From: Eledone cirrhosa
Lineage: Eukaryota
Direction: 5' to 3'
Length of the DNA: 64,000 bases
NCBI GenBank assembly: GCA_964016885.1
Contig: OZ024744.1
Span: 86,428,001-86,492,000 of the forward strand
Positions 21,400-64,000 of this stretch are shown here, one piece after another. Made by a program: the position numbers and the translations under genes. Each line of letters opens with the position of its first letter. Position 1 is the first letter of the stretch. A model generated the notes under the pieces. The model did not search any database, was not told where the DNA came from, and was given only the letters and a program-made list of their open reading frames with translations.

Positions 21400-21413
21400 A
21401 TTATTTGAATTTT

Positions 21414-28270: not shown

Positions 28271-28337
<67 letters not shown>

Positions 28338-30330: not shown

Positions 30331-30627
30331 GATGATAACTACTTACTGTACTGCACTTGATATAGATTGCCAGTTTTGTCGGAGTGGACGTGCTATTATT
30401 ATTATTATTATTATTATTGGCGACCTACGTAGTAAATCGTATCATCGTGAGCTCCGCAAAGGTTTGTTATTTCCGTTTGTTAAAAATTGCCATTTATGGA
30501 AAATTTTATTGTTAACTGTTTATAAGCACACATACATTGTTTTCCGAAAAGGACACCCAAAAAGATTGGGGCCTTGTGCCCAAAATTTTAACTTTTATTA
30601 TTATCAAAAAATTTCTTTGAAAAAAAA

Positions 30628-32568
30628 ATGGCTACTTCACCTCTGCACGAAGCAGCTGAAAGCCTTCCTCACAAAATAACACCTCACACCATTGTAAATG
30701 TTACTACGTTTGCCAACACAAAAAAAAATATAAGCAGTAGCAATATTTTAAATTTGTCTCAGGCAGACATTCATTTCCCGCCATTACCAATGACTGCAGG
30801 TGTTAAAGCCTCCACCACCACCACCACAGCGACAACCAACACCGCGACAACAGAAACAAAAGAAGAAAAAAATAAATTAACTCGTGATGTCGAAATGAAA
30901 TCAAGCAAAATGGACTCTTCCCCACCAAAGACGACTGACGTCACCACCACCACAACTGAAACTAAAATTAATATTAACGATAGCAACAACAACAACAATG
31001 ACATTATAACCCCCCCCCCCTCAGTTTCGCCAGAGTAGCAAAACAATTCGAAGCATTTATGGTAACTCAGGAAGATTTAGAAAATGCCAAACAAATGGTA
31101 AAGAAAGATGGGTACAGGGTCAGCCTCACCCCCCACCTAATAAAATGGAGCATCAGCGCCTATGCACCGTGTCGTATAGAACAATAAATGTAAAATCGCG
31201 CCGAGTGGAACGGGCATCCGAGTCCCAAATCCAAAAAGCTTTGGGACATGTGTGGGCAAGAAAAACCCACATCAGACGTGGGCAAAAGTATGGAACCGTG
31301 GACGTGTTCTTTGAAACACCAGAGGAGGCTAGAGAACACTCCATGGCCCCATTAAAAAGTGACAACTTCACACTCGTCCCAAGCTATTGTGGCCAGAGAC
31401 TCGTAAAGATCAGGGTGACCCACGTTCCACCGGCCATCGAAATTCCCTGGCTAATAGCGGCCGTCCTCGCCGGCATCGAAGCCAACACGAAAATAATAGC
31501 AATAGCAAAAGAAAAGCAGGAAAACTGGTCCGGATCTGGGATGGAGCTCCTGATCCAAGCGGACCAAAAAAGCATTGAGGAGATCCCAGAGGTAATAGAC
31601 CTCACTGACGGCAGCCACCTCACGGTAATTGTCGAGGGCAGAAGACCTAGGTGTGTCGTTTGTGGTGAAGGAACCCACCTAAGGGCTTTCTGCCCTCAGG
31701 CTAAAAGGTTGAGGCCACCTCTCCTACCCACCCCAGTGACACAACCATCAACACCACCAGTAGCAGAGATGGCAGCAACAACTATAACAGCAACAACCCC
31801 AGCAACAGTAGCAAAACCAACACCACTACCACCACCAGCAAAACCAACACCACCACCACCCAACGCTTCAGAACTAGCACCAGCGCCTACACCATCCACC
31901 ACACCACAACCAAAACTAACGGCTGTGGAGGATTTTCCACTCCCCGGCCTATCACAACTGGAGACAGATTGTGACGACGAGGAGTGGGAAACGATATCCG
32001 GAAAAAAAAAGAAACCAAAAAAGAAAAAAATTCTCTTCCTTCCCCCTCCAAAAACAAAATACAGAGGGAAACAAATAAACTAAGAAACAAAAAAGTTAGG
32101 ACAGATATGCCACCATCCACACCAGCATCACCAACCCCATCAACCCAAACACCAACACCATCACCATCATTAACTCCAACACCACCATCACCTACACCAC
32201 AAAAGTCACCAAAATGCGAAACAGAAACAAACCCACAACAAACGCAAACAAAACAAAACAACCAAAACGATACACACTACACAGCATTAAATTTGAACAA
32301 CAAGCAATTATTACACTACATCCAACACAACACCAGCATCACAGAAAAAGACTACACAACAACCCCAAAATTCACACCACCTCCACACATACAAATCACT
32401 CGCATCACACAGAAAACGTACATGACACTAAAACAAAAATTCCCCAAAGACATCGGAGACGTCCGACAAGCACTCTCCAGGAGGATTTATAAGGACATCC
32501 TTCCTGAGGAGGCCACAAGCAGTGAAAAGGATGGAAAAGCCGTCCTTCCCCTACGAGAAGTAAGGTAA
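30628..32568 (+). pseudogene. ORF1 (gag-like, CCHC knuckle), type A, frameshifted at homopolymer runs
   Basis: Pieces 30628-31038, 31145-32083 and 31984-32568. CVVCGEGTHLRAFC knuckle. Homologous to the type B ORF1 core. Confidence 0.85.
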
Positions 32569-32602
32569 GTGGTCTTTCCCATCTTTTCCACTCCTTTTCA
32601 AC

Positions 32603-35600
32603 ATGACCTCACTCAGAATAGGCAGCATAAATGCGCGTGGCTTGGGGTCGTCATGGAAGCAGGGCCACCTGCTCAATGACCTCAGGTCACTAAACATAGA
32701 TGTAGTGGCCATCAGCGAGACCAGAATCTCCGAAGCACAGGCTTTCGCACCGATCTTCGGCGGCTACGATGTGTACGCATCTCCCAGCCGTCCGGGATCG
32801 GGAGGAGGAGTTGCTGTGCTTTTTCGGAGAGGTTTGGATCTTGCCATACGGGCCATCTTCCTGGACCCAGAAGGTAAGTTGGTGGTGCTGGACGTGACCA
32901 GCGGAGACGGGCAAGCTTTCAGGTTAGTGGCCGTCTATGCCCCGACAGGAGCAGGGCGGCCTGATTTCTTCCGGCGTCTGGAGACCTTTCTTGGAACGTC
33001 CCGCTCTTTAGTGTTAGTGGGCGACAGGAACGGGATCTTAGATGCACGCTGGGATTGTGTGGGATTAGTGGATAGGGAAGGAGGGTGCAAGAGTCTCACC
33101 AACCTGCTCAGACGTTTTGAACTGTCTGACAGGTACCGAATGGATTTCCCGAATGTACCAATGTGGACTTGGACAAATCGCATAGGGTCATCCAGATCAT
33201 ATCTAGATAGAGTATTTTGTAGGGAAATAGATAGGTCTAGCATAGGCTGTCCACAATTCAAGATAGTCAGCTACACGGACCACAAATTCGTGATCTGTGT
33301 GCTTGACTTAGATAGGCTTCATAGGCGAGGACCCGGCTACTGGAAGCTAAACGCGTCCTTACCAGCGCGCAAGGCCTACAGAGACCGGATTAGCGAACTA
33401 GTTAAGCGGGCGTTGACGGGGGCCATCGTCAACAACAAGTGGTGGTTTGCTCTGAAAAGAGCAATTAGAATAGAGTCCATTAGGTTTAGTAAGACTTTAG
33501 CAATAGAGAAAAATAGAGCAGAGGGAGAACTAGTTAGAAAATTAGATGAGGCGCTTAGCAAAGGCATCGCGACCGACGTACTTGCGGCGAAATTGGCCCT
33601 TGACCAATTCTTCAATGCAAAGCACGAAGGCTGCGTTGTCAGAGCTAGGGTGCGTGCTCTCAGACACGAGGGGACGAAAGCCGTTCAATGGGCCCGAGTG
33701 GCGGAGGCGCGTCGTGGCAACAAAGCCACGATCCGGTCTTTGGTGGACCACGACGGGCGCATGCTAATCGATCCCGGGCAAATGTGTGAAGCTTTTCAGC
33801 GACACTTCGCTCAACTGTTCGGGGGCAGTGGTGGGCCGGATCGAGGGATGGACTTTAGTGTCTACCTCGACGGACTGCCGCGGCTTTCGGCCACTGAGGC
33901 GGAGTGTTGCGAAAAGCCGATAACAACCGCTGAAGTACGGGATGCAATGACTAGTTGCACAAGGAGTAAATCGCCTGGTTTGGATGGTCTGCCCTATGAA
34001 CTTTACGTACAAATGCCAAACTTGTTCGGAGGCCTCTTGGCGGACGTCTACTGTAACTGGCAACAGAACGGGAGAATTTCCAGCTCTGTGAGCCGAGGAG
34101 CGGTGGCGCTGCTGAGAAAGGATCCGAACAAGGGGGATAACATAGATAATTTTAGGCCCATAACTCTGCTAAACACAGAGTTCAAGATTTTGGCCAAGGT
34201 GCTAGCAAAGAGGTTGGCGCTTGTCGGTGGTGGTCTGGTGGGAGAGGCACAGACATGCGCCATTCCCGACAGATCCATCCACGACAACCTCCACCTCATG
34301 CGATACATCGTAGAGAGGGCAGCTAGGGAACCTGGCACGGGTGGGTCTTTGATCAATTTAGATCAGTCGAAAGCCATCGATAGGGTCGACCATCGTTACC
34401 TAACGGCAGTCCTGAGGGCGGCTGGCTTTGGGCCCGTCTTCAGAGGCTGGATCGCTGCCATGCACAGCGACATCTGCTCTGTAGTGAGAGTGAACGGTCA
34501 CCTTTCGGAACCGTTAAACATCATGCGCTCGGTCCGCCAAGGATGTCCCCTCTCGTCCCTATTGTACGTATTGACTCTCGAGCCATTACTGCACAAAATG
34601 GAGACGTTGAGGGGGGTCCCGCGCGAACTAGGATGCGGAAGATCCGTGTCAGCATATGCCGACGATGTCACCGTAATGGTGTCGAACGCCAAACACATCG
34701 AGGCGATCGGCACTACACTAAGAGAATACGAAGCGGTGACAGGAGCAATGATCAACCAGGAAAAGTCAGTGGGCCTGCAGCTCGGCACCTGGAGAGGCAG
34801 GTCCATGCCGTCCAACAGCGTCGTCGGGCGCTGGACGGACGGACCGGTTAAATTGCTAGGGGTCTGGTTCGGTCCAGACCTCCAGACGGACAAAAACTGG
34901 GACGAGGTGACGAGCAGGGTGGCTTCTCTCACCCAGAAATGGGCCGAGAGGAAGCTATCCCTGAAAGGTCGAGTGGAGGTGGCGAATGCGTACATCGCAT
35001 CCGTCATCTACTACCGCCTGACCGTCGTACCTTGTCCTAAGCCCCGCCTGACTGCGCTGGAGCGTTTGCTCTTTCGCTTCTTGTGGAAGGGACGCGCTCC
35101 GATGGTCAGGCGGTCCATCTGCTGTCAACACCCGCTACGTGGAGGGCTGGGCATGCCGTGGCTGATGATGCGCAGACACGCGCTCAGGCTACGACATCTC
35201 CAACTCTTCCTCGACGGTGATCAGGTGTGGTCACCGTTTGCAAGACACCTTTTTCCCCAGCTCGTCTCCTTGACGGAGCTGCAGTCCTGGGTCAAGAGAA
35301 GACCGAGAGGGAGCGCTTGGAGACTGGAATGTCTTCAGGCGCTCACAGCCCTCGACCAATCGGGCAATGTGATCGGTGGAAACTCCACCTTGGCGTTCTA
35401 TAGGGGATTAGTGGAAAGGATGAGCGACGACGTACTTGGAGAAACTCTAGGCGTCGACGAAAATCAACTAGCGAATCTCTTCGGAAGGACTTTCGGGCCG
35501 GGGCCTATGGACAACTTCCAGAAATCCCTAGCCTGGCAGTGCTACCGAGGAGCTTTGCCAGTTCGGGATAAACTCTACAGGCATGGAGGTGCCGTCAGCC

Positions 35601-36022
35601 GGGCATGTCCGAGATGCGCGCAGGGCGACGAAACCGTCCTGCACGCACTCGTCCAGTGTCCGAGCATTGCTGACTTGTGGGTTTATGTCGAACACCTGCT
35701 GTCACGTGTAGGACGGATCCAGCTATCAGCTGAGTCCATCGTGAGGATTGCCCCGCCCCCTTCCTTTAGCCTGGAAGGGCAGGCAGTTTTTATCTGTCTG
35801 GTGGCCATGGCGAAAGAGATAGTATGGTGGACACGTTTGAAAGGGCTGAAGACGAGCACTTACCTCTTCGGTGATGCCCTGATTAACTTTTTCAAATTTC
35901 ATTTGAAAAGGAAAATCAGGGTAGAGAGGGAAGTGCTCTCTTCCCAGCATTTTGTTGAAAGATGGGTGAGAGAAGCAAGTATGGCCCGAATGAATGGGCC
36001 TTCTCTGAGTATGTGTCTGTAA
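32603..36022 (+). CDS. ORF2: APE endonuclease, RT, C-terminal CCHC finger
   Basis: 1139 aa open. SINARGL, ISETR, VYAP, YLDR, TDH, PGYWKLN, KSPGLDGLP, RPITLLN, VRQGCPLS, YADD, GGLG, CPRC..ETVLHALVQC. Confidence 0.95.
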   Translation: MTSLRIGSINARGLGSSWKQGHLLNDLRSLNIDVVAISETRISEAQAFAPIFGGYDVYASPSRPGSGGGVAVLFRRGLDLAIRAIFLDPEGKLVVLDVTSGDGQAFRLVAVYAPTGAGRPDFFRRLETFLGTSRSLVLVGDRNGILDARWDCVGLVDREGGCKSLTNLLRRFELSDRYRMDFPNVPMWTWTNRIGSSRSYLDRVFCREIDRSSIGCPQFKIVSYTDHKFVICVLDLDRLHRRGPGYWKLNASLPARKAYRDRISELVKRALTGAIVNNKWWFALKRAIRIESIRFSKTLAIEKNRAEGELVRKLDEALSKGIATDVLAAKLALDQFFNAKHEGCVVRARVRALRHEGTKAVQWARVAEARRGNKATIRSLVDHDGRMLIDPGQMCEAFQRHFAQLFGGSGGPDRGMDFSVYLDGLPRLSATEAECCEKPITTAEVRDAMTSCTRSKSPGLDGLPYELYVQMPNLFGGLLADVYCNWQQNGRISSSVSRGAVALLRKDPNKGDNIDNFRPITLLNTEFKILAKVLAKRLALVGGGLVGEAQTCAIPDRSIHDNLHLMRYIVERAAREPGTGGSLINLDQSKAIDRVDHRYLTAVLRAAGFGPVFRGWIAAMHSDICSVVRVNGHLSEPLNIMRSVRQGCPLSSLLYVLTLEPLLHKMETLRGVPRELGCGRSVSAYADDVTVMVSNAKHIEAIGTTLREYEAVTGAMINQEKSVGLQLGTWRGRSMPSNSVVGRWTDGPVKLLGVWFGPDLQTDKNWDEVTSRVASLTQKWAERKLSLKGRVEVANAYIASVIYYRLTVVPCPKPRLTALERLLFRFLWKGRAPMVRRSICCQHPLRGGLGMPWLMMRRHALRLRHLQLFLDGDQVWSPFARHLFPQLVSLTELQSWVKRRPRGSAWRLECLQALTALDQSGNVIGGNSTLAFYRGLVERMSDDVLGETLGVDENQLANLFGRTFGPGPMDNFQKSLAWQCYRGALPVRDKLYRHGGAVSRACPRCAQGDETVLHALVQCPSIADLWVYVEHLLSRVGRIQLSAESIVRIAPPPSFSLEGQAVFICLVAMAKEIVWWTRLKGLKTSTYLFGDALINFFKFHLKRKIRVEREVLSSQHFVERWVREASMARMNGPSLSMCL

Positions 36023-36265
36023 ATTAAAGGTGGAAAACTGGGAGAGGGCACTTGCCCTGGTGGTCAGGGCCACTGTGGTCTTTTAATGGGCTTTCTCCAC
36101 AAATGTCCGTTGGAAGTCTCCCCCCCTATTGGGGAATTTTTCTTTGTTATTTTATTTCAACCTCTTTCTTTTTACACGCAGAAATGCCCATTTGTACCGT
36201 CCTGTATTGTCCTGTACTGTCCTTAATGTCTACTTTATGTGAACCCTTGTGGTTAATAAAGAAAA

Positions 36266-36308
<43 letters not shown>

Positions 36309-36309
<1 letters not shown>

Positions 36310-38302
36310 TTTGAACCTCAGTCATTGATGTTATTCAACTGGAAAGTCTGTTGAAATGAATATCAAGCCGCTACCTGCAGCCTCAGATATTCAGGACGTA
36401 TCGGAGGGTTCATGCTGTTCCCAGCAAGCATGCCTTTTGAAGCGTTCCAAAAAGCGTGGCGGGGCCAATTTTCTTTTACCATCCCTGGAAACTTTTTGAG
36501 ATAGTACCTAGTGCGCCTATGACAATCGGGACCACTTTGACTTCATGGCAGTTCCAAATCCTTTTTACCTCCCACTTTAAGTCCTGGTTTCAGTTAATTG
36601 TCTCCCTCTCCTTCTCTTGCACCCTCATCTCGAATGGGCAGGCCACATCCACAATCAGGCACGATTTTTTTCCTTGTCCTAAACCACCATGTCGGGTCTA
36701 TTGTGTTCCAGTTTCTTGGCCGTCTGTATCCTAAATTCCCACAGCACCTTCACCTGCTCGTTTTCTATCACCGACTCTGGCTTATGCTCACACCACTCCT
36801 CAGAATGTGGTAAATTGTTTACTTTGCATAGGTGCCAGTGGATCACCCTGCCCATCACATCATGTCTCCAGCCTTTATAGTGAGTCTGGGCTAGGTGCTT
36901 ACACTCGGATACAATGTGAGCCACAGTCTACTCTCTCTCTCCACAGATCCTACACAGTGGGCTAGCCTCCTCCTTGTAAATATGATGTTTCAACCACTTC
37001 GTTTTGAGGGCCTGCTCTTGCGCAGCCATTAACATTCCTTCTGTAGCCTTTTTAAGGTCTCATCTTTTCAACCAGTTCCATGTCTGTGGATCTCTGAATT
37101 CAGTTTTCTCAAAGAAGGTACTATGAAGGGATTTTTCCTGAAGGCTGCTCTTTCTCCTTGATGTTATTTCCTCCTTGGACATCCCCTGGTCTATTGTCCC
37201 CTCCTTCAGTACAGTTCTGAGCATTGGCTCCTTACTATCAGTCACGTATTTGTGTAGGTTGTTTTTCTCCATCTGAACACAGTCCTCTATGCTGATAAGA
37301 CCTCTTCCACCTTCAGATCTCCTTAAATAGAGTCTATCGACATCACTCCTCTTGTGGAAGATGTTGCAGATAGTCAATAGCTTCATAGTCTTCCTATCCA
37401 TTTCTTTTTGTTCAGCAACATTCCATCTCAGAATTCCCGCACTGTACCTAATAATAGACACAGCTCGGGAATTTACTGCACTTATGGCATTCCTACTGTT
37501 CAGATGTGACTTTAATACGCTCCTTACTCTCCGAAGGTATTCAGTTCTTATCAATTCCTTCATTTTTTTGTTCTTGATGTCATCAGCCTCCAGAACACCC
37601 CAAAATTTGTATCCTTTTTCAGAGTCAATTTCCTTTATCATCTCACCTGTTGGTACCTGGATTCCGTTGCTTCTGCTCAATTTACCCATCTTCATCACAA
37701 GGACTCCACACTTACTAATACCAAATTGCATACATATATAATTGCTGAAAATACGGACAGTGTCAACAAGCACACCCAACTCCTTCTCACTCTTCCCGAA
37801 GAGCTTAAGATCGTCCATGAAGAGGAGGTGATTGATGGTAAGCCCTCCCTTTCCCAACCTGTATCCTGCTCTCACTTTTCGCAGTACACAGGTCAGGGGC
37901 ATCAGGGCAAGGACAAATAACAGAGGGGACAGACTATCTCCCTGGAAGATACCTCTCTTGGTCTTCACGACTCCCAGGGATTCTCCAGCCGATGTTAACT
38001 CTGTTTTCCAGCACTTCATACTTTTGTCCAACAACTGTCTCATGTTATCTGCCACCTTGAAGATCTCCAGGCTTTTGGTGATTCAAGAATGAGGCACCAT
38101 GTCAAATGCCTTTTCGTAGTCTATCCATCCCATGGCAAGACCAGTGTGTCTCCTCTTGCAATTCCTCATTACCATCTTATCAATAAGTAACTGGTCCTTT
38201 GTAGCACGTGACTTCTTTCGGCATCCTTTCTGTTCGTCCGGTAACAAGTTGTTTGTGTGGAGGTGATGGTAGATTTCCTCAGACATAATGCTTGTCAACA
38301 TT
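36309..38302 (-). mobile_element. R4/Dong-clade RLE LINE, family X copy 1, 5'-truncated and decayed
   Basis: [67 protein letters not shown] short 3'UTR runs into (TAA)n. Confidence 0.92.
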
Positions 38303-38322
38303 TTATTATTATTAGGATGTTA

Positions 38323-39746
38323 TTGATAATTTCAGGCCCATAACTCTGCTAAACGCAGTTCAAGATTTTGGCCAAGGTGTTAGCAACGAGGTTGGCGCTT
38401 GTCGTCAAGGGTCTGGTGGGAGAGGCGCAGACATGCGCCATCCCGGACAGATCCATACACGACAATCTCTACCTCATGCGATACATCACAGAGAGGGTGG
38501 TTAAGGAACCTGGCAAGGGTGGGGCCCTGATCAACTTGGATCAATCCAAAGCATTCGATAGGGTCCTGGCGGCGGTCCTCGAGGCAGCCGGGTTCGGGCC
38601 CGTTTTAAGGCGTTGGATCGCAGCGATGTACAGCGACATCTGCTCAGTTGTGAGGGTGAACGGTCACCTGTCGCAGCCGTTCAGCATCATGCGCTCATTC
38701 TGCTAGGGTTGTCCCCTCTCGTACCTCTTGTACGTATTGGCTCTCGAGCCGTTACTGCACAAACTAGGGGCGATGATGGGCGTCCCACGCGAACTAGGAT
38801 GCCGGAAATCCGAGTCGGCTTACGCTGACGACGTCACCGTGGTGGTGTCGAGCACCAGACACGTCCAGATGCTCGGTACCGCTCTCAAGGAATACGAAAC
38901 GGTGACAGGAGCAAAGATAAACCAGGAAAAGTCGGTGGGCTTGCAGCTCGGCACCTGGAGAGGCAAGTCCATGCCATCCGACAGCGTCGTGGGGCGTTGG
39001 ACGGACGGACCGGTTAAATTGCTCGGGGTCTGGTTCGGACCGGACCTCCAGATGGAGAAAAACTGGAACGAGGTGACAAGCAAGGTGGCCTCCCTCACCC
39101 AGAAATGGGCTGAGAGGAAGCTGTCCCTGAAAGTCCGGGCGGAAGTGGCGAATGCGTACATCGCATCCGTCATTCTGCTACCGCCTCACCGTCGCCCCTT
39201 GCTCCAGCCCAACTCTCACCAAAATGGAGCGCCTCCTGTTCTGCTTTTTGTGGAAGGGATACGCTCCCATGGTCAGACGATCCATCTGCTGTCAACACCC
39301 GTTGCGTGGAGGACTGGGCATGCCATGGCTGACGATGCGCAAACATGCGCTGAGGCTCCGACATCTCTGGTGCTTCCTTGATGGTGAACGGGTGTGGTCG
39401 CCGTTTGCCAGGCACATTTTCAAACAGCTCGTCTTCTTGAACGAGCTGCAGTCCTGGGTCAACAAAAGACCGAGGGATAGCGCTTGGAAACTGGAATGTC
39501 TCCAGTCGCTCACTGCCCTCTCCCAGTTGGGCACCAGTATCGGTGGAACATCCACCTCGGCGTTCCTCAGAGGACTAGTGGAGGGGAAGAGCGACGACGT
39601 TCTCGGAGTAAATTTTTCTTTGTTATTTTATTTCAACCTCCGTTTTTTTTACACGCAGAAATGCCCATTTGTACCGTCCTGTATTGTCCTGTACTGTCCT
39701 TAATGTCTACTTTATGTAAACACTTGTGGTCAATAAAGAAAACATT
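38323..39746 (+). mobile_element. Tx1-like 5'-truncated fragment (divergent type C ORF2) joined to an A-type 3'UTR
   Basis: RT fragments at 38368-39600 (DQSKAFD, YADD) jump at ~39610 to a 3'UTR matching 36135-36266. A (TTA)n tract lies at 39747-39767. Confidence 0.88.
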
Positions 39747-39980
39747 TTTATTATTATTATTATTATTGAATGCCATGGTTGACGGAGGCTCTGCTCTGTA
39801 AGGTATAGTAATTTTTAACCGTTAAAACAATTGTAAATTGTTTAAAACTTGAACCAAATTGTTGATAAAGACACCCTCCTCCTCGTGAGAGGGGTCTTTC
39901 TGTCCGTTATTTGGCCCTTCGGGGTTAAATAACCAGTTATTGGGGTTTTGTACCCAAAATTTCATTTTAAACAAAAAAAC

Positions 39981-42074: not shown

Positions 42075-42108
42075 GTGGTCTTTCCCATCTTTTCCACTCT
42101 ATTTAAAC

Positions 42109-45494: not shown

Positions 45495-45755
45495 ACTAAA
45501 GGTGGAAAACTGGGAGAGGGCACTTGCCTTGGTGGTCAGGGTCATTGTGGCTTTTTACTGGGCTTTCTCCACAAATGTCCCTCCGAAGTCTCCCCCCTAT
45601 TGGGGAATTTTTCATTGTTATTTTCATTGTTATTTTTGTTACATCCTCTATTTTTGTTTTTTTTACACGCAGAAATGCCCATTTGTACCGTCCTGCATTG
45701 TCCTGCACTGTCCTTAATGTCTACTTTATGTAAACCCTTGTGGTTAATAAAGAAA

Positions 45756-45810
<55 letters not shown>

Positions 45811-47728: not shown

Positions 47729-47743
47729 TTATTTTTATTATTA

Positions 47744-51966: not shown

Positions 51967-51983
51967 CATTATTATTATTATTA

Positions 51984-53470
51984 CAGTTGCATTTATCTTG
52001 CTTTATGTTCATACGAGTTATCACCAAGTCACAACCAGTGACCTCAAGAGACAACAAGGTCCGCCATGTTCAAGAAAGAACATACATATTCACACATGCA
52101 TCTTTACTGTTTAGACTTGTGATGTACTTATATTGACAGAATCTTCCTTAGTATATGGGCAGTTCCCATTAGTACTATATTTTGTATTTCTCCTATACGC
52201 GGGTTTCCTGGGATTTGCGATAAGTAATCATTAGACACCTTAGGTATCATTCCTAGAGCGCCTACAACCACTGGTATTGTTTTAGTTCTCAATTTCCACA
52301 TTTTTCCAATTTCTATCTCCAGGTCCTTATACTTGCTCAATTTTTCAAATGTTTTTATAGATACATTCTTGTCTATTGGAACAGACATATCAATTAGCAG
52401 GTATACCCTCTTTTTAAAGTCCTTCAATATTATATCAGGTCTATTTGCATCTATTTTTCGGTCTGTTTGGATGCTAAAGTTCCACAAGATTGAGATGTGA
52501 TCTTTTTCAAGTATGGGAGGTGGTTGATGCTCCCACCAATTCTTTTGATGGGGCAGGTCAAAATGCTTACACATTATCCAATGTATGAATTGTGCAGCTC
52601 TGTCATGCCTGTTTAGGTATTCGGTTGGAGCTATAGGACTGCACATTGAAATTATATGGTCAATGGTCTCTGGTTGTTTTTTGCATACACGGCATAATGG
52701 GCTGCATCCATTTTTTATTATGTTGGCTTGGTAATTTTTTGTTGGCAGACACTGATCTTGTGCTGATATAATCAGTCCTTCAGTCTCCGATTTCAGTCCA
52801 GAGGATGCCAACCACTGATGGGTTAAAGTTTTGTCAACATCAGGATTGTTAGCTCGCTCTGGGTATTTTCCATACAGAGGCTGTTCTTGCCATTTCTTAG
52901 CCAGTTTCTGTAGCAGTTCTTTCTTTGCAGTTACTTTTACCTGCTTTGCTTTTTCTGTGTTTTCCATTTCAGCAGTAAATGGGACTTCTGAAATTTGTAG
53001 TCCATTACTGTATCTTTGTGCATCTTTTTTAATGGAATATGATCTTTTGATGCTTTCGTGTTTCAAAACGAGTTTGATCATCCAATCATGTGATTCCCTT
53101 AGATATGTAGATAATCCAATTGTTGCAGTTTTCAACGCAATGTCTAACTGGATTAACCCACGTCCTCCTTCTTTCCTAGGGAGATATATTCTATCTATAT
53201 CTGCCTTAGGGTGATGCATTCTGTGCATGGTTAAGAGTTTTCGAATTTTTGTATCGAGCCTACGGATCTCTGTGCTTGACTAGTTGATGACATTGTAACT
53301 GTAGGTTACTACTGGTATGGCAAGCGTGTTTATGGCATCGATCCTATTCCTTGCATTCAATTCCGTTCTTAAGATTGCTCTTACTCTGCGGTAACATTCC
53401 TTCCTTATCCTTTCCCTCATTGTCGAGTGCTTGATTCCGTCTCCTTCACAAACACCTAGATATTTGTAAG
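51984..53470 (-). mobile_element. R4/Dong-clade RLE LINE, family Y copy 2, 5'-truncated
   Basis: Open frame 52128-53228 with CRVC..ETIDHIISMC, RHD, RPD and IDMSVP..EK. The 3'UTR is nearly identical to 45811-45950. (TTA)n lies at 53472-53493. Confidence 0.93.
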
Positions 53471-53708
53471 TTATTATTATTATTATTATTATTGAATGCC
53501 ATGGTTGACGGAGGCTCGGCTCTGTAAGGTATAGTAATTTTTAACCGTTAAAACAATTGTAAATTGTTTAAAACTTGAACCAAATTGTTGATAAAGACAC
53601 CCTCCTCCTCGTGAGAGGGGTCTTTCTGTCTGTTATTTGGCCCTTCGGGGTTAAATAACCAGTTATTGGGGTTTTGTACCCAAAATTTCATTTTAAACAA
53701 AAAACAAC

Positions 53709-55805
53709 ATGGCTATGAAAAAGAAATTTCATACGTCACTCCCACTCATTCCGTCTTCTTCTTCCTCAATCATCACTACAGCAGAGAGAAGATTGTCTCT
53801 CTCCCTCCCTTCTTTAAATGTGTCTCTCTCCCTCCCTTCTCTTTCGCAAGTGACGAAAGAAAAGAAAAGTCTCGTGCAAAGCGTGCAAGGTTTCTCCACG
53901 ACGACGACGACAGCGACGAAACAGGTGTGCGGGAAATACGAAAACCCAGTTCATTCGTCTGACGTCAGGAATAATAGCAGTAACAGCCGTAATAACAACA
54001 GCAACAGTGACAATGAAAACAACAGTAGCAGCCGCAACAGCATCACCAGCAGCATAAACAACAACAGCATTAGCAGCAGCAACACCAACAACAACCACAG
54101 CAACAACGGCGGAGGCAGTAGTCGTAGTACCTGCAGCAACAACAAAAGTACCAGCAGCTCTGACGACAACAACAACAGCAGAGAAAAACCAATCTCATTT
54201 GCAGGTATTGCGAAAAACTTGGAAACAATCCTCATAACAAATGAGGAATTAGAGGAAGCGAAGAAGATGTTGACAAAGAACGGACACCGAGCAATCTGCA
54301 AGGCAGCGAAAAATTTTTTCGAAACCCAAGAGCACTGTACGGTCACGTACCGTACAGTAAGTACAAAATCCCGTAGGGTGGAAAGAGCCACAGAGGCCTA
54401 AATACAAAAAGCCTTGGGGTCTGTGTGGCAGAGGAAAACGCACATCACCCGAGGCAAAAAATACGCCACCGTAGACGTACTTTTTGCCACACCCCAGGAG
54501 GCAAAGGCCCAATCAGTAGTGACCCTAAGGAGCGAGGAAATGGTGTTGGTGCCCTCCTACTGCGGGCAAAAAATTGTGAGGGTCAAACTGACCCACGTCC
54601 CCCCCGGAATGACCCCTTCTTGGCTGGCCGCGTCTGTCCTCGTCGGAATCGAGGACAAAACAACTGTACTGCAAGTACAGAAAAAAGTAAGAGAAGATTG
54701 GGTCGGCTCCTCCATTGAGATGCTAATCCAAACCAACCAGGAGTGCATCGAAGCTATCCCGGATGTGATAGACTTCGATAACGGCACTCAACTGCCCATA
54801 AGTGTTGAGGGCAAACGCCCGAAATGCTTTCGCTGTGGATCGAAGACTCACCTCAGGGCCTTCTGCAACGAGAAGACCCTGAGAAAGGAGAAAACCCCCC
54901 TCCTTCCGAATCCGGCTCCACGGCTACCAGCAACAGGACAAGCGGCAACCAGGAACGATTGGTCCGTGGCACCCATACCCACTCCACGGAAATCAAAGAC
55001 AGCAGCAGCAGTGGAAATATTAACAACAACAACAGCAATACCAAATGCAGCTGCAACAGAGACTCCAGTGCAAACATCACCAACAACAACAAGTGAAAGA
55101 GTGGAGCTGGTACCCCTCCCCGACCTTACAGAATCAGACATGGAGTGTGAGGTGGGAGAGGGATGGCAAAAGGTCGCAAGAAGGCACAAACGCAGAAGCA
55201 GCGCATCGTCGCCTTTGAAAAGGGAGGAAAGAAATGAGAAAAGGGTAAAGTCTACTGCAAAGAGACCCACAGCAGCAACACCACCAACACCATCACCACC
55301 CACACCAGCACCACCATCACCACCGGCGACAACCCCACCGCCAACAACACCTTCAACACCACCACCACAAGCACCAACATCGCAAACACAACAACAAAAC
55401 ACACACACCCAGCAACAACGACAAGAAAATAGCAGAACCACACCCCACCCCCAGAAAAACAAATGCACGGTAATAAACACACACAACAAGAAACTAATGA
55501 CTTACATAATTGAACACACAGACATTTCACAACAGGACTACATAATACCAGCACCAATCAAAACGCCAACTAACATAAGACTGCTAAAAATAGCACAGAA
55601 ACAATACACAAACATTAAAACGAAATTCCCCAACGCAGTTGGTGATTTCAGGGACCTAGGAGGAACCATCAATCGAAGAGTATATTCAGACATTCTCTTA
55701 GAAGAGCCGACGACCAGCCGAAGGGACGATTCAACGGTCCCTTCACCAGACGATCAAGTGAAAAGGGATGTAAAAACCATCCCTCCTCTACCAAAAGTAC
55801 GGTAA
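53709..55805 (+). pseudogene. ORF1 type B with one premature stop (CAA>TAA at 54399-54401)
   Basis: ORFs 53709-54401 and 54414-55805 are in the same frame and match 39981-42074. Confidence 0.9.
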
Positions 55806-55840
55806 GTGGTCTTTCCCATCTTTTCCACTCTATTTTAAAC

Positions 55841-58800
55841 ATGACCTCACTCAGAATAGGCAGCATAAATGCGCGTGGCTTGGGGTCGTCATGGAAGCAG
55901 GGTCACCTGCTCAACGACCTCAGGTCACTAAACATAGATGTAGTGGCCATCAGCGAGACCAGAATCTCCGAAGCACGGGCCTTCGCACCGATCTTCGGCG
56001 GCTACGATGTGTACGCATCTCCCAGCCGTCCTGGATCGGGTGGAGGAGTTGCTGTGCTTTTCCGGAGAGGTTTGGATCTCGCCATACGGGCCATCTTCCT
56101 GGACCCAGAGGGTAAGCTGGTGGTGCTGGACGTGACCAGCGGCGACGGGCAAGCTTTCAGGCTAGTGGCCGTCTATGCCCCGACAGGAGCAGGGCGGCCT
56201 GATTTCTTCCGGCGTCTGGAGACCTTTCTTGGAACGTCCCGCTCTTTAGTGTTAGTGGGCGACAGGAACGGGATCTTAGATGCACGCTGGGACTGTGTGG
56301 GATTAGCGGATAGGGGTGGAGGGTGCAAGAGCCTCACCAACCTGCTCAGGCGTTTTGAACTGTCTGACAGGTACCGATTGGATTTCCCGAATGTGCCAAT
56401 GTGGACTTGGACAAACCGCATAGGGTCATCCAGATCATATCTAGATAGAGTATTTTGTAGGGAAATAGATAGGTCTAGCATAGGCTGTCCACAATTCAAG
56501 ATAGTCAGCTACACGGACCACAAATTCGTGACCTGTGTGCTTGACTTAGATAGGCTTCATAGACAAGGACCCGGCTACTGGAAGCTAAACGCGTCCTTAC
56601 CAGCGCGCAAGGCCTACAGAGACCGGATTAGCGAACTAGTTAAGCGGGCGTTGACGGGGGCCATCGTCAACAACAAGTGGTGGTTTGCTCTGAAAAGAGC
56701 GATTAGAATAGAATCGATTAGGTTTAGTAAGGCTTTAGCAATAGAGAAAAATAGAGCAGAGGGAGAACTAGTTAGAAAATTAGACGAGGCGCTTAGCAAA
56801 GGCATTGCGACCGACGTGCTTGCGGCGAAATTGGCCCTTGACCAATTCTTCAATGCAAAGCACGAAGGCTGCGTTGTCAGAGCTAGGGTGCGTGCTCTCA
56901 GACACGAGGGGACGAAAGCCGTTCAATGGGCCCGAGTGGCGGAGGCGCGTCGTGGCAACAAAGCCACGATCCGGTCTTTGGTGGACCACGACGGGCGCAT
57001 GCTACTCGATCCCGGGCAAATGTGTGAAGCTTTTCAGCGACACTTCGCTCAGCTGTTCGGGGGCAGCGGGGGGCCGGGTAGAGGGATGGACTTTAGTGTC
57101 TACCTCGACGGACTGCCGCGGCTCTCGGCCACTGAGGCGAAGTGTTGCGAAAAGCCGATAACAGCCGCTGAAGTAAGGGAGGCAATGACTGGCTGCAGAA
57201 GGGGTAAATCGCCTGGTTTGGATGGTCTGCCCTATGAACTTTACGTACAGATGCCAGACTTGTTCGGAGGCCTCTTAGCGGACGTCTACTGCAACTGGCA
57301 ACAGAACGGGAGAATTCCCAGTTCTGTGAGCCGAGGAGCGGTGGCACTGCTGAGAAAGGATCCGAACAAGGGGGATAACATAGACAATTTCCGGCCCATA
57401 ACTCTGCTAAACACAGAGTTTAAGATTTTGGCCAAGGTGCTAGCAAAGAGGTTGGCGCTTGTCGTTGGTGGTCTGGTGGGAGAGGCGCAGACATGCGCCA
57501 TTCCCGACAGATCCATCCACGACAACCTCCACCTCATGCGATACATCGTAGAGAGGGTAGCTAGGGAACCTGGCACGGGTGGGTCCTTGATCAATTTAGA
57601 TCAGTCGAAAGCTTTCGATAGGGTCGACCATCGTTACCTAGCGGCAGTCCTGAGGGCGGCTGGCTTTGGGCCCGTCTTCAGAGGCTGGATCGCTGCCATG
57701 CACAGCGACATCTGCTCTGTGGTGAGAGTGAACGGTCACCTGTCGGAACCGTTCAACATCATGCGCTCGGTCCGCCAAGGATGTCCCCTCTCGTCCCTCT
57801 TGTACGTATTGACTCTCGAGCCATTACTGCACAAACTGGAGACGTTGAGGGGAGTCCCGCGCGAACTAGGATGCGGAAGATCCGTGTCAGCATATGCGGA
57901 CGATGTCACCGTAATGGTGTCGAACGCCAAACACATCGAGGCGATCGGCACTACACTAAGAGAATACGAAGCGGTGACAGGAGCAATGATCAACCAGGAA
58001 AAGTCAGTGGGCCTGCAGCTCGGCACCTGGAGAGGCAGGTCCATGCCGTCCAACAGCGTCGTCGGGCGCTGGACGGACGGACCGGTTAAATTGCTAGGGG
58101 TCTGGTTCGGTCCGGACCTCCAGACGGACAAAAACTGGGACGAGGTGACGAGCAGGGTGGCTTCTCTCACCCAGAAATGGGCCGAGAGGAAGCTATCCCT
58201 GAAAGGTCGAGCGGAGGTGGTTAACGCGTACATCGCGTCTGTCATCTGCTACCGCCTCACCGTCGTACCTTGTCCTAAGCCTCGCCTGACTGCGCTGGAG
58301 CGTTTGCTCTTTCGCTTTTTGTGGAAGGGACGTGCTCCGATGGTCAGGCGGTCCATCTGTTGTCAACACCCGCTACGTGGAGGGCTGGGCATGCCGTGGC
58401 TGATGATGCGCAGGCACGCGCTCAGGCTACGACATCTCCACCTCTTCCTCGACGGTGATCAGGTGTGGTCGCCGTTTGCTAGACGCGTTTTTCCCCAGCT
58501 CGTTTCCTTGACGGAGCTGCAGTCCTGGGTCAAGCGAAGACCGAGAGGGAGCGCCTGGAGACTGGAATGTCTTCAGGCGCTCACAGCCCTCGACCAATCG
58601 GGCAATGTGATCGGTGGAAACTCCACCTCGGCGTTCTATAGAGGATTAGTGGAGGGGAAGAGCGACGACGTACTTGGGGAAACTCTAGGCGTCGACGAAA
58701 ATCAACTAGCCAATCTCTTCGGAAGAACTTTCGGGCCAGGGCCTATGGACAACTTCCAGAAATCTCTGGCCTGGCAGTGCTACCGAGGAGCCTTGCCAGT

Positions 58801-59260
58801 TCGGGATAAACTCTACAGGCATGGAGGTGCCGTCAGCCGGGCATGTCCGAGATGCGCGCAGGGCGACGAAACCGTCCTGCACGCACTCCTCCAGTGTCCG
58901 AAAATTGCTGACTTGTGGGTTTATGTCGAACACCTGCTGTCGCGTTTAGGACGGATCCAGCTATCATCTGAGTCTATCGTGAGGATTGCCCCGCCCTCCT
59001 CCTTTAGCCGGGAAGGGCAGGCAGTTTTTATCTGTCTGGTGGCCATGGCGAAAGAGATAGTATGGTGGACACGTTTGAAAGGGCTGAAGACGAGCACTTA
59101 CCTCTTCGGTGATGCTCTGATTGACTTTTTCAAATTTCATTTGAAAAGGAAAATCAGAGTAGAGAGGGAAGTGCTCTCTTCCCAGCATTTTGTTGAAAGA
59201 TGGGTGAGAGAAGCAAGAATGGCCCGAGTGAATGGGCCGACTCTGAGTATATATCTGTAA
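55841..59260 (+). CDS. ORF2: APE endonuclease, RT, CCHC finger (open)
   Basis: 1139 aa with all motifs of 32603-36022, including DQSKAFD and YADD. Confidence 0.95.
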   Translation: MTSLRIGSINARGLGSSWKQGHLLNDLRSLNIDVVAISETRISEARAFAPIFGGYDVYASPSRPGSGGGVAVLFRRGLDLAIRAIFLDPEGKLVVLDVTSGDGQAFRLVAVYAPTGAGRPDFFRRLETFLGTSRSLVLVGDRNGILDARWDCVGLADRGGGCKSLTNLLRRFELSDRYRLDFPNVPMWTWTNRIGSSRSYLDRVFCREIDRSSIGCPQFKIVSYTDHKFVTCVLDLDRLHRQGPGYWKLNASLPARKAYRDRISELVKRALTGAIVNNKWWFALKRAIRIESIRFSKALAIEKNRAEGELVRKLDEALSKGIATDVLAAKLALDQFFNAKHEGCVVRARVRALRHEGTKAVQWARVAEARRGNKATIRSLVDHDGRMLLDPGQMCEAFQRHFAQLFGGSGGPGRGMDFSVYLDGLPRLSATEAKCCEKPITAAEVREAMTGCRRGKSPGLDGLPYELYVQMPDLFGGLLADVYCNWQQNGRIPSSVSRGAVALLRKDPNKGDNIDNFRPITLLNTEFKILAKVLAKRLALVVGGLVGEAQTCAIPDRSIHDNLHLMRYIVERVAREPGTGGSLINLDQSKAFDRVDHRYLAAVLRAAGFGPVFRGWIAAMHSDICSVVRVNGHLSEPFNIMRSVRQGCPLSSLLYVLTLEPLLHKLETLRGVPRELGCGRSVSAYADDVTVMVSNAKHIEAIGTTLREYEAVTGAMINQEKSVGLQLGTWRGRSMPSNSVVGRWTDGPVKLLGVWFGPDLQTDKNWDEVTSRVASLTQKWAERKLSLKGRAEVVNAYIASVICYRLTVVPCPKPRLTALERLLFRFLWKGRAPMVRRSICCQHPLRGGLGMPWLMMRRHALRLRHLHLFLDGDQVWSPFARRVFPQLVSLTELQSWVKRRPRGSAWRLECLQALTALDQSGNVIGGNSTSAFYRGLVEGKSDDVLGETLGVDENQLANLFGRTFGPGPMDNFQKSLAWQCYRGALPVRDKLYRHGGAVSRACPRCAQGDETVLHALLQCPKIADLWVYVEHLLSRLGRIQLSSESIVRIAPPSSFSREGQAVFICLVAMAKEIVWWTRLKGLKTSTYLFGDALIDFFKFHLKRKIRVEREVLSSQHFVERWVREARMARVNGPTLSIYL

Positions 59261-59519
59261 ACTAAAGGTGGAAAACTGGGAGAGGGCACTTGCCTTGGTG
59301 GTCAGGGTCATTGTGGCTTTTTACTGGGCTTTCTCCACAAATGTCCCTCCGAAGTCTCCCCCCTATTTGGGAATTTTTCATTGTTATTTTCATTGTTATT
59401 TTTGTTACATCCTCTGTTTTTGTTTTTTACACGCAGAAATGCCCATTTGTACCGTCCTGCATTGTCCTGCACTGTCCTTAATGTCTACTTTATGTAAACC
59501 CTTGTGGTTAATAAAGAAA

Positions 59520-59587
<68 letters not shown>

Positions 59588-59588
<1 letters not shown>

Positions 59589-60295
59589 CTTGAATCTCAG
59601 TCATTGATGTTAGTTAACTGGAAAGTCCGTTGGAATGAATATCAAGCCACTAGCTGCAGCCTCAGATATTCAGGACGTATCGGAGGGTTCTTGCTGTTCC
59701 CAGCAAACATGCCTTTTGAAGCGTTCCAAAAAGCGTGAAGGGGCCGATTGACAATCGGGATCACTTTGACTTCATGGCAGTTCCAAATCCTTTTTACCTC
59801 CCACTTTAAGTCCTGGTATCGGTTAATTTTCTCCCTCTCCTTCTCTTGCACTCTCGTGTCGAATGGGCAGGCCACATCCACAATCAGACACGATCTTTTT
59901 TCTTTGTCCACAACCACCAGGTCAGGTCTATTGTGTTCCAGTTTCTTGTCCGTCTGTATCCTAAAATCCCACAGCACCTTCACCTGATCGTTCTCCATCA
60001 CCGCCTCTGGCTTATGCTCATACCATTTCTCAGTGTGTGGTAAATTGTTTACTTTGCACAGGTGCCAGTGGATTACCCTGCCCATCACATCATGTCTCCA
60101 GCCCTTATAGTGGGTCTGGGCTAGGTGTTTACACTCGGATACAATGTGAGCCACAGTCTCCTCTCTCCACAGATCCTGCACAGTGGGCTAGCCTCCACCT
60201 TGTAAATATGGTGTTTCAACCACTTCGTTTTGAGGGCCTGCTCCTGCGCAGCCATTAACATTCCTTCTGTAGCCTTTTTAAGGTCTCCTCTTCTC

Positions 60296-60296
<1 letters not shown>
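59588..60296 (-). mobile_element. R4/Dong-clade RLE LINE, family X copy 2, heavily 5'-truncated
   Basis: ETVAHIVSEC, RHD, NRPDL, IVDVACPFD, EK. The 3' end is homologous to 36309ff, and (TTA)n lies on both sides. Confidence 0.92.
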
Positions 60297-60363
<67 letters not shown>

Positions 60364-63300
60364 GGCGACCTACGTAGTAAATCGTATTATCGTGAGTTCC
60401 GCAAAGGTTTGTTATTTTCAGTTGTTTAAAATTGCGATTTACGGAAATATTTATTGTTAACTGTATATAAGTGCACATACATTGTTATCTGAAAAGGACA
60501 CTCAAAAAGATTGGGGTCTTGAGCCCAAAATTTAAACTTTTATAATTATCAAAGAAAAACATTTTCTTTAAAAAAATCATGGATGATTCACAGCCACACC
60601 TTCCTCACAAACTAACACCTCACACCGACACCACTATTGCAAATATTACTACGTTTGCCAACACTAAAAATATAAACAGTAGCAATATTTTAAATTTGTC
60701 TCATGCAGACATTCATTTCCCGCCATTACCAATGACTGCAGGTGTTGAGGCCGCCACCCCCACCAACACAACAGCGACAACAGAAATAAAAGAAAAAAAT
60801 AAATTATCTCGTGACATGAAATGGATTCACCCAGAATGATTCACCCAGAATGGACTCTTCGACACCGAACACCACTGACGCCACCACCACCACAACTGAA
60901 TCTAAAAATAACAATAACAAAAATAACGATAACAACAACAGCAACAATGAAATTAAGAAAACCACCCTGTCTTTTGCCAGAGTAGCAAAAAAGTGCGAAG
61001 CATTCCAGGTAACTCAGGAATAATTAGAAGAAGCCAAAAAAATGGTAAAGAAAGATGGGTTCAGGGTCAGCCTCACCCCCACTCCCCACCTAATAAATGG
61101 AGCACGGCGCTTATGCACTCTTTCTTATCGGACGATTAACATAAAATCGCGCCGAGTGAAACGGGCATCCAAGTCTCAAATCCGAAAAGCTTTGGGACAT
61201 GTGTGGGCAAAAAAACCCCACATCAGACGTGGGCAGAAATATGGAACCGTGGACTTGTTCTTTGGAACACCACAGGAGGCCAGAGAACACTCCATGGCCC
61301 CATTAAGAAGTGACGACTTCACACTCGTCCCAAGCTATTGTGGCCAGAGACTCTTAAAGATCAGGGTGATCACGTTCCACCGACCATCGAAATTCCCTGG
61401 CTGATAGCTGTCGTCCTCGCCGGCATCGAAGCCAACACCAAGATAATAGCAATAGCGAAAGAAAAGCAGGAGAACTGACCCGGATCTGGGATGGAGCTCC
61501 TGATACAAGCGGACCAAAAAAGCATTGAGGAGATCCCAGAGGTAATAGACCTCACTGACGGCAGCCACCTCACGGTAATCGTCGAGGACAGAAGGCCTAG
61601 GTGTGTCGTTTGTGGTGAAGGAACCCAACTAAGGGCTTTCTGCCCTCAGGCTAAAAGGTTGAGGCCACCTCTCTTACCCACCCCAGTGACTCAACCATCA
61701 ACACCACCAGCAGCAGAAATGGCAGCAACAACTGTAGCAGCAACAACAGAAGCAACTGTAACAGCAACAACCCCAGCAACAGTAGCAAAACCAACACGAC
61801 CACCACCCAACACGCCATAACTAACACCAGAGCCTACACCATCGACCACGCCACAACCAAAGCCAATGCCTGTGGAGAATTTTCCACTCCCCGACCTATC
61901 GCAACTGGAGACAGATTGTGACGACGAGGAGTGGGAAACGGTATCAGAAAAAAAGAAAAAAAGAAAAAGAAACCCAAAAAAGAAAAAATCCCCTCCCTTC
62001 CCCCTTCAAAAACAAAATTCAGAGGAAAACAAATAAACTATCAAACAAAAAAGTTAGGACAGCTATGCCACCATCCACACCAGCATCACCAACCCCATCA
62101 CCACAAACACCAACACCATCACCATCATTAACCCCAGCACCACCATCACCAACACCACAAAAGTCACCAAAAAGCGTAACAGAAACAAACCCACAACAAA
62201 CGCAATCAAAACAAAACAACCAAAACGATACACACTACACAGCATTAAATTTGAACAACAATACAATTATTACACTACATCCAACACAACACCAGCATCA
62301 CAGAAAAAGACTACACAACAACCCAAATGTTCACACCACCTCCACACATACAAATCACACGCATCACACAGAAAACGACACTAAAACAATAATTAGTACA
62401 CGACACTAAAACAATAATTCCCCAAAGACATCGGAGACTTCCGACAAAAACACTCCAGGAGGATTTATAAGGACATCCTTCCGGAGGAGGCCACAAGCAG
62501 TGAAAAGGATGGAAAAACCGTCCTTCCTCTACGAGAAGTAAGGTAAGTGGTCTTTCCCATCTTTTCCACTCCATTTCAACATGACCTCACTCAGAATAGG
62601 CAGCATAAATGCGCGTGGCTTGGGGTCGTCATGGAAGCAGGGCCACTTGCTCAACGACCTCAGGTCACTAAACATAGATGTAGTGGCCATCAGCGAGACC
62701 AGAATCTCCGAAGAAGGGGCCTTCGCATCAATCTTCGACGGCTACGATGTGTTCGCATCTCCCAGCCTTCCGGGATCGGGGGGAGGTATTGCTGTGCTTT
62801 TTCGGAGAGGTTTCGATCACGCCAATCGGGCCATCTTCCTGGACCCAGAAGGTAAGTTGGTGGTGCTGGACGTGACCAGCTGAGACGGGAAAGCTTTCAG
62901 ACTAGTGGCAGTCTATGCGCCGACAGGAGCAGGGCGGCCTGATTTCTTCTGGCGTCTGGAGACCTTTCTTGGAACGTCCCGCTCTTTAGTGTTAGTGAGC
63001 GACTGGAACGGGATCTTAGATGCACGCTGGGACTGTGTGGGATTAGCGGATAGGGGAGGAGGCTGCAAGAGCCTCACCAACCTGCTCATGCATTTTGAAC
63101 TGTCTGCCAGGTACCGATTGGATATCCCGAATGTGGACTTGGACAAATCGCATAGGGTCATCCAGATCATATCTAGATAGAGTATTTTGTAGGGAAATAG
63201 ATAGGTCTAGCATAGGCTGTCTACAATTCAAGATAGTCAGCTACACGGACCACAAATTCGTGATCTGTGTGCTTGACTTAGATAGGTTTCATAGACGAGG

Positions 63301-64000
63301 ACCCGGCTACTGGAAACTAAACGCGTCCTTACAAGCGCGCAAGGCCTACAGAGAACGGATCAGCGAACTAGTTAAGCGGGCGTTGACGGGGGCCATCGTC
63401 AACAACATGTGGTGATTTGCTCTGAAAAGAGCGATTAGAATAGAGTCCATTAGGTTTAGTAAGACTTTAGCAATAGAGAAAAATAGAGCAGAGGGAGAAC
63501 TAGTTAGAAAAGTAGACGAGGCGCTTAGCAAAGACATCGCGACCGACATACTTGCGGCGAAATTGGCCCTTGACCAATTCTTCAATTCAAAGCACGAAGG
63601 CTGCGTTGTCAGAGCTAGGGTGAGTGCTCTCAGACACGAGGGGAGGAAAGCCGTTGAATGGGCCCGAGTGGCGGAGGCGCGTCGTGGCTACAAAGCCACG
63701 ATCCGGTCTATCGTGGACCACGACGGGCGCATGCTACTCGATCACGGGCAAATGTGTGAAGTTTTCAGCGACACTTCGCACAGCTGTTCGGGGTCATCGG
63801 CGGGCCGGGTAGAGGGAACGACTTTAGTGTCTACCTCGATGGACTGCCGCGGCTCTCGGCCACTGAGACGGAGTACTACTACGAAAAGCCGATAACAGCT
63901 GCTGAAATACGGGAGGCAATGATTGGCTGCATAACGGGTAAATCGCCTGGCTTGGATGGTCTGCCCTATGAACTTTACGTACATATGCCAGACTTGTTCG
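60364..64000 (+). mobile_element. L1/Tx1-clade LINE, type A copy 2, decayed, runs off the window
   Basis: Starts GGCGACCTACG after (TTA)n at 60297-60363. ORF1 remnants lie at 60579-62546 and ORF2 remnants start at 62581, both with stops and frameshifts. Confidence 0.93.

Follow-up and report, generated by a model that had tools for sequence, protein, structure and literature searches.

The 64,000-nucleotide (nt) stretch of the Eledone cirrhosa genome considered here (GenBank assembly GCA_964016885.1, contig OZ024744.1, positions 86,428,001 to 86,492,000 of the forward strand; hereafter the window, on the contig designated C28) carries a dense array of retrotransposons lacking long terminal repeats (non-LTR elements), which are separated from each other by TTA tracts alone. 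Six of the elements, all on the + strand, are Tx1-like and encode an apurinic/apyrimidinic-like endonuclease (APE), and five, all on the - strand, are Dong-like with a restriction-like endonuclease (RLE). It appears that such polarised arrays, with Tx1-like elements on the TTA strand and Dong-like elements on the TAA strand, arise as target-primed insertions recur, each leaving target to the left and right of the new copy, a reading to which a probability of about 0.8 is assigned. The array is not a special locus; it is one of very many, found at thousands of places in the genome.

Exact TTA-free motifs were counted in the 3.0-Gb assembly, which yielded 9314 tails of the Tx1-like families A and B, 4612 of DongX, and 3840 of DongY. 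By the same kind of genome-wide count, TTATTATT is located directly 5′ of 1611 of 1655 family-B heads (97%) and 1584 of 1687 family-A heads (94%), in one phase, against a background of 0.00038 of strand-positions that follow this sequence (107,641 bases outside the array). These shares are far above the >20% of copies with the same flank by which target-specific families have been recognized (PMC4494074; here and below, papers are cited from the excerpts available). The head junction is TTATT/G in 60 of 60 heads (the first 30 A and the first 30 B on C1), and 60 of 60 Dong tails adjoin a tract; such flank samples are position-ordered, not random, and neighbours within one array may count twice. 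Truncated copies were taken, like arrays b and c, from score-ranked queries containing TTA. Among truncated Dong copies, whose breakpoints vary widely, 25 of 31 have + strand TTA next to them, i.e., TAA 5′ of the element, and the six misses include three internal deletions and two TTC tracts (by eye). For truncated Tx1 copies, TTA lies 5′ in 10 of 23, and eight of the 13 misses run on into Tx1 and are internal deletions (by eye). In the sense of the element, (TAA)n hence stands at both flanks of Dong, and (TTA)n is a target rather than a tail only, as the original prediction had proposed.

Orientation proved to be fixed in other clusters as well. All 139 junctions between two long interspersed elements (LINEs) keep the polarity (Tx1-Tx1 38, Dong-Tx1 38, Tx1-Dong 35, and Dong-Dong 28) in the fetched stretches, which contain 238 TTA tracts and were chosen in a way that enriches for Tx1 tandems. 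A LINE is found directly across the tract at 42 of 60 heads, so that these families normally occur in mixed arrays; among tails, the figure is 37 of 60 for Dong and 14 of 30 for Tx1. With regard to order, the leftward neighbours of 60 Dong tails comprise 22 Dong and 15 Tx1 copies, and those of 60 Tx1 heads comprise 23 Tx1 and 19 Dong copies (like versus unlike, Fisher P 0.26, position-ordered samples); one array contains nine consecutive Dong copies. The window itself alternates (10 runs, P 0.024, for a single locus chosen after the fact). In the samples, neighbours of the same kind are at least as frequent as neighbours of the other kind; the alternation in the window is therefore not a rule, and it was dropped as a mechanism. 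The tail-to-tail arrangement noticed at first is real in the window, where a Dong tail is met by four of the five Tx1 tails, but the same neighbour counts do not support it as a special feature.

Composition of the array and relationships of its elements

The array measures 36,353 bp and comprises 11 elements and 12 tracts, which sum to 425 bp; no host DNA lies between the elements. Its right end was read from the next 80 kb of the assembly and is located 2.7 kb beyond the window, at 66746. The parts are as follows.

30394-30418, +: left (TTA)n tract, the array's left end; its final TT precedes the head
30419-36267, +: element 1, Tx1-like family A, full-length; open reading frame (ORF) 1 across split frames, with CCHC knuckle
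32564-36022, +: ORF2 of element 1, 1152 amino acids (aa), open; APE, reverse transcriptase (RT), zf-RVT
36307-38300, -: element 2, DongX, 5′-truncated
38315-39744, +: element 3, Tx1-like family D, 5′-truncated; internal deletion; A-type tail (95.5%)
39768-45758, +: element 4, Tx1-like family B, full-length; ORF1 of 713 aa open, ORF2 broken near start
45810-47729, -: element 5, DongY, 5′-truncated
47744-51968, +: element 6, Tx1-like family C, 5′-truncated; 75% to A/B; several stops
51984-53470, -: element 7, DongY, 5′-truncated; 383-aa C-terminal part open; CCHC and PD..D motif
53494-59522, +: element 8, Tx1-like family B, full-length; ORF1 with stop, ORF2 frame 55646-59260 open
59586-60295, -: element 9, DongX, 5′-truncated
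60364-66232, +: element 10, family A, full-length, degraded; leaves the window at 64000 and is followed by TTA
66269-66692, -: element 11, DongX, beyond the window
66693-66746: closing tract (TTA)18, beyond the window
Nine internal TTA tracts of 14-68 bp: 36268-36306, 38301-38314, 39745-39767, 45759-45809, 47730-47743, 51969-51983, 53471-53493, 59523-59585, 60296-60363

All ten TTA junctions claimed for the window are thus present, and the tracts at 38301, 39745, and 47730 contain extra T. Past the closing tract, the sequence continues as (TA)n. The stretch left of the array (about 27900-30392, -) is high-copy and Penelope-like by eye, and its ORFs have no Pfam match.

The predicted strand split (six APE elements on +, four RLE elements on - in the window) holds by ORF family matches and DNA identity. 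Five of the + elements are APE-type by ORF matches to RT, zf-RVT, or APE families in Pfam, and element 10 is assigned by its DNA identity to element 1 (90%); the four - strand elements in the window are 3′ fragments of single-ORF elements with RT, CCHC, and PD..D. The expectation of at least six families is also supported, namely A, B, C, and D (75-95% DNA identity), DongX, and DongY (35% protein identity between the last two). The body of element 3 is 82% identical to A/B and has a 91% relative in L338.

In the Tx1-like elements, ORF2 comprises an N-terminal APE, RT, and a C-terminal zinc region (Pfam PF03372, PF00078, and PF13966) and is preceded by a separate ORF1, the layout of APE elements of the L1 group. 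It matches human L1 ORF2p (E 1.5e-52); in separate searches, 325 bits were obtained for Xenopus Tx1 ORF2 and 182 bits for human L1. Among named proteins, the nearest relative comes from Argonauta (69% identity). In an RT tree without mammalian L1, Repbase, Kibi, or Koshi rows, whose deep fork is unsettled, these elements share a 100/100 clade with unnamed relatives and the Argonauta protein, and the Tx1 rows of fish and frog fall outside it. A CCHC zinc knuckle in ORF1 is a feature of the Tx1 clade, and a single CX2CX4HX4C motif occurs in ORF1 of both A and B. The catalytic motifs of the APE are retained, with GDWNG in 80 of 86 motif matches. Elements 1 and 8 have GDRN instead of GDWN, which was considered as a family trait or local conversion and dropped (3 of 86 matches, one of them elsewhere).

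Families A and B (window 30419-32520 versus 39768-42025) have ORF2 and tail about 95% in common, while their regions of the 5′-untranslated region (UTR) and ORF1 are unalignable, i.e., a head swap. Large internal deletions with both ends kept occur in many Tx1 A/B copies (L003, L016, L021, L029, L219, L229, L234, and L235). Distant relatives from metagenomes (24-44% identity) belong to another lineage, and no TTA tract of at least 5 units was found in the 28 of 80 loci scanned, in which element ends are often missing.

Full-length Dong ORFs, of 1141 aa and 1216 aa, are present elsewhere in the genome. They show the RLE-type organization, a single ORF with RT followed by CCHC and a PD-(D/E)xK nuclease and without APE. 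Their top matches in the PDB are R2 proteins, with a weak match across the PD..D region, and no named Dong or R4 sequence is among the 120 matches listed. The Dong label is a provisional one, which draws on architecture, target, and motifs; both clade names, Tx1-like and Dong-like, should be read as probable assignments from architecture, target, and score, not from a tree with named references. It was reported that Bombyx Dong has a 5′ ribozyme resembling that of hepatitis delta virus (PMC3774820); here, no ribozyme family appears in 28 Rfam matches (E ≤ 1) from four loci, such ribozymes being divergent. The first ~100 nt are near-identical in DongX and DongY (L274, L269, L285, and L286), with a GAA run that is often expanded, and some copies have other heads. 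This common 5′ end suggests that 5′ ends may have been exchanged between the two families.

Proposed insertion model, possible neighbour copying, and alternatives

The proposed priming is based on the model of target-primed reverse transcription (PMC10760644, PMC3774820). By this model, Tx1 RNA ending in UUA repeats would be primed from a nick in the TAA strand, and Dong RNA ending in UAA repeats from the TTA strand, so that the type of RNA tail would fix the orientation once a tract is present. With each insertion, some 14-20 bp of target or more would be duplicated and one tract gained; array order would therefore be near random, and tail-to-tail joins would follow from polarity alone. The uniform head junction may be explained by RNA that carries the upstream repeat, as has been proposed for R2, whose RNA includes target sequence from upstream and so yields uniform 5′ junctions through heteroduplex priming (PMC3774820).

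A second step is proposed for other arrays. A new Tx1B copy would be primed upstream of an older one, and its cDNA would invade that neighbour and copy the neighbour's 5′ part together with the upstream flank (X), giving the order X-new-X-old with a chimeric new copy. In total, 30 adjacent B pairs (32 rows less two non-adjacent) and seven A-A pairs (eight rows less one) were scored. The prediction that the 5′ part of the left copy matches its right neighbour was made together with the first test, and further arrays were added afterwards. Among the B pairs, the spacer is informative and duplicated upstream of the left copy in 13, pure TTA in 10, and not or only partly duplicated in seven; the shortest spacers are 17, 20, 20, 23, and 23 bp. 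Duplicated spacers are 23-890 bp long, such as one of 888 bp at 99.9%, a 757-bp Dong with one mismatch, and 230 identical bp, and the two B copies on either side are mostly as divergent as unrelated copies. An identical 5′ run of at least 700 nt (727-3502 nt) between the left copy and its right neighbour was detected in 8 of 30 pairs, seven of which belong to the 13 with duplicated spacers, compared with 14 of 1167 between-array pairs (P about 1e-8, pairs not independent); 3′ runs of such length occur in 2 of 30. The left copy in arrays i and j consists of an old-type 5′ part of 1.4-1.6 kb, with 0-8 differences to the right neighbour, and a young-type remainder. The same geometry is seen in one DongY pair, with a common truncation point, 286 identical nt at the 5′ end, and 32 substitutions elsewhere. 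It is somewhat more probable than an even chance that neighbour-templated, insertion-coupled copying lies behind the duplicated spacers and 5′ runs. The window's own array contains no case of such copying.

Simple unequal exchange within a tandem was rejected, since five chimeric copies (arrays b, d, e, j, and l) are the leftmost B and have no B on their left. A more serious if doubtful source of the chimeric, flank-duplicated Tx1B tandems is later unequal crossing-over, in which a new copy would recombine with an older one on the homologue or sister chromatid. It would yield an identical X-chimera-X-old product and is consistent with c18509, whose 5′ end matches the neighbour on its right and whose 3′ end the one on its left, as expected from unequal exchange. 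Adjacent Tx1 copies in arrays x, r, s, i, and c (L341-L343, L331-L334, L311-L312, and the C2 array) also have 10, 5, 5, 4, and 4 rare variants in common, where the 99th percentile of the background is 2; this excess suggests local conversion or exchange and fits crossing-over. However, the unrecombined state should then dominate, yet 13 informative spacers are duplicated versus seven un- or partly duplicated. Moreover, in array a the first mismatch of the 888-bp duplication falls at base 27, which would be an improbable crossover window, and 5′ runs number eight versus two 3′ runs.

Several points weigh against the proposed scheme of target-primed insertion and neighbour copying, besides c18509. 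Target duplication is invisible within pure TTA, although the 17-23 bp of the shortest B-B spacers and the SINE duplications described below speak for it. The genome data do not discriminate specificity of the endonuclease from pairing of the RNA tail. Of the truncated Tx1 copies, five of 23 are flanked 5′ by sequence other than TTA (TAA in one of them) and show no evident internal deletion (by eye), and in arrays g, p, and q blocks of opposite polarity adjoin at a change from TAA to TTA. As for neighbour copying, a long 5′ run occurs in none of the seven adjacent A-A pairs, an exact 700-nt run is missing from 6 of the 13 pairs with duplicated spacers, and the 5′ runs number 6 of 19 in the first set versus 2 of 11 (three counting array i) in the follow-up set.

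At one locus (L276:945-1050 and 3030-3290), 106 bp of the other flank of a truncated DongX are repeated behind it, together with further short templated pieces; this duplication is long, yet there is no homologous neighbour. A likely short interspersed element (SINE; window 21205-21411, 21843-21986, 27356-27755, and 14704-15188) has a Tx1-like tail in its last ~25 nt and ends in TTA. Target duplications of 14-19 bp starting with ATTA are clear for five and doubtful for two of 27 copies, and the SINE adjoins 6 of 60 Tx1 heads on the left. It may be mobilised by these LINEs and may seed new tracts.

Targeting could also come about if the RNA's repeat tail pairs with TTA tracts that are nicked or unwound, with only loosely specific endonucleases. 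The tail equals the target in each clade, pairing alone would fix the polarity, and the SINE inserts at short ATTA sites, with at least three TTA units 5′ in only 6 of 27 near-full copies. This explanation is nevertheless rather unlikely: target choice in the Tx1 clade has been ascribed mainly to the endonuclease (PMC4494074), and 3′ pairing alone leaves the single 5′ phase of 94-97% of heads unexplained.

Assembly artefacts, from repeat concatenation or haplotype duplication, are a very improbable origin of the array or of the chimeric tandems. Short-read contigs and restriction-site-associated DNA (RAD) reads on 28900-30900 did not span the left junction, and one fetched head (L057) lies beside an N gap. 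Against this, the copies in the window are 0.6-25% divergent with distinct breakpoints, no N occurs across 144 kb of sequence around the array, equal junction types recur over the 238 tracts, and young and old subfamily parts meet at sharp points in the chimeras.

Growth of the window's array through segmental duplication of Tx1-Dong blocks, which its regular alternation and the block duplications at other loci might favour, is more remote still: no two blocks have a breakpoint in common, identities are 90% for the two A copies, 95.8% for the DongY pair, and 86-94% for the DongX copies, and the two B copies differ, like unrelated copies, by 35 evenly spread substitutions, the first at base 26, and have zero rare variants in common. 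Independent insertion, as originally argued from truncation points, is therefore upheld for the window, but the absence of duplication does not extend to other loci, where flank blocks are duplicated with neighbour-derived 5′ ends.

Relation to known systems and other features of the window

The insertion of Dong into TAA, of Tx1 elements into other microsatellites, the opposed TRAS/SART arrays, and the convergence of APE and RLE elements on U2 are already known. The target of Dong is the TAA microsatellite (PMC3812793), and the known Dong elements of the R4 clade (Bombyx Dong, DongAg, and DongBg of the snail Biomphalaria) resemble the present elements in target and in a single ORF with RT, CCHC, and PD..D. 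In contrast to known Dong elements, two families only 35% identical are found here with a ~100-nt 5′ end common to most full-length heads, and they are interleaved with an APE clade. Microsatellite families of the Tx1 clade include Kibi on (TC)n, Koshi on (TTC)n, and crocodilian families on (TTCC)n/(TTTC)n (PMC4494074), which are alike in an ORF2 with APE, RT, and zf-RVT and in a CCHC-containing ORF1; the present lineage differs from Kibi and Koshi in its (TTA)n target. Sequential tandem insertion around a target site duplication, as reported for tandem SINEU-3 (PMC4494074), is comparable to the arrays.

TRAS and SART are likewise two families that insert in opposite orientation into one Bombyx telomeric repeat and form arrays (PMC10088271). 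Both, however, are R1-clade APE elements at telomeres, whereas here APE and RLE clades occupy dispersed interstitial tracts. Keno (APE) and Utopia (RLE) evolved in parallel onto one target, the U2 genes (PMC4640811), which is a single site in a gene; mixed opposed arrays are not described in the excerpts of that paper. Templated L1 insertions resembling synthesis-dependent strand annealing (SDSA), in which cDNA detached from its RNA anneals to homologous DNA nearby and a segment is duplicated, were reported in tumours and are typically <250 bp (10.1101/2024.08.27.596794). While SDSA-like L1 and R2 events are somatic and <250 bp or based on a gene target, the template here would be a neighbouring family member, with 0.7-3.5 kb of element and up to 890 bp of flank in common, in about a quarter of the sampled B-B pairs.

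Surveys of octopus genomes list Dong-R4 and L1-Tx1 as expanded or active, Dong-R4 being recently active in Octopus vulgaris (PMC13282606), with targets not given in the parts available (PMC13282606, PMC8967140, PMC9115989). In the literature found, there is neither a (TTA)n-specific Tx1 nor a mixed Tx1/Dong array, although Repbase, Kojima and Fujiwara 2004, or the supplements of PMC4494074 may name such a family. The phenomenon is real and genome-wide, and it combines known parts in a new way; the neighbour-copying signal is less expected and bears on 5′ joining. We consider the odds about even that Dong and a hitherto undescribed Tx1 lineage specific for (TTA)n have come by convergence to use opposite strands of one microsatellite and form thousands of self-extending mixed arrays in octopods, and that about a quarter of tandem Tx1B insertions are finished with the neighbour as template, from which the 5′ end and as much as 0.9 kb of flank are copied.

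If so, truncated cDNAs would be rescued to full length with a promoter, subfamily heads would be swapped, and passengers including Dong fragments would be duplicated. 5′-end joining is the least understood step in the retrotransposition of non-LTR elements (PMC3774820, PMC10760644). The arrays offer many dated natural intermediates, in which interrupted tracts mark the start and end of each insertion, and neighbour-templated completion would provide a route to 5′-end swaps of both the A/B and the DongX/DongY kind. Target specificity would also account for the local LINE hotspots of cephalopods, which have been reported without a mechanism in the excerpts of PMC13282606. Arrays of this kind will also fragment assemblies made from short reads and mislead repeat libraries. 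In addition, APE and RLE nucleases acting on the two strands of one trinucleotide repeat would be a clean pair for a comparison of recognition.

No tRNA gene was found in a search of the window. Among its other features is a 1040-aa ORF with APE, RT, and PHD at 378-3500 (+), which we take to be RTE-like. A Penelope-like element with RT and GIY-YIG occupies 8911-10561 (-), and an inverted pair of 340 bp with 98% identity (7724-8063 and 10559-10898) surrounds the Penelope-like ORFs. Short interstitial telomere-type repeats, two of which are inverted relative to each other, are located at 24796-24863 and 26743-26763.

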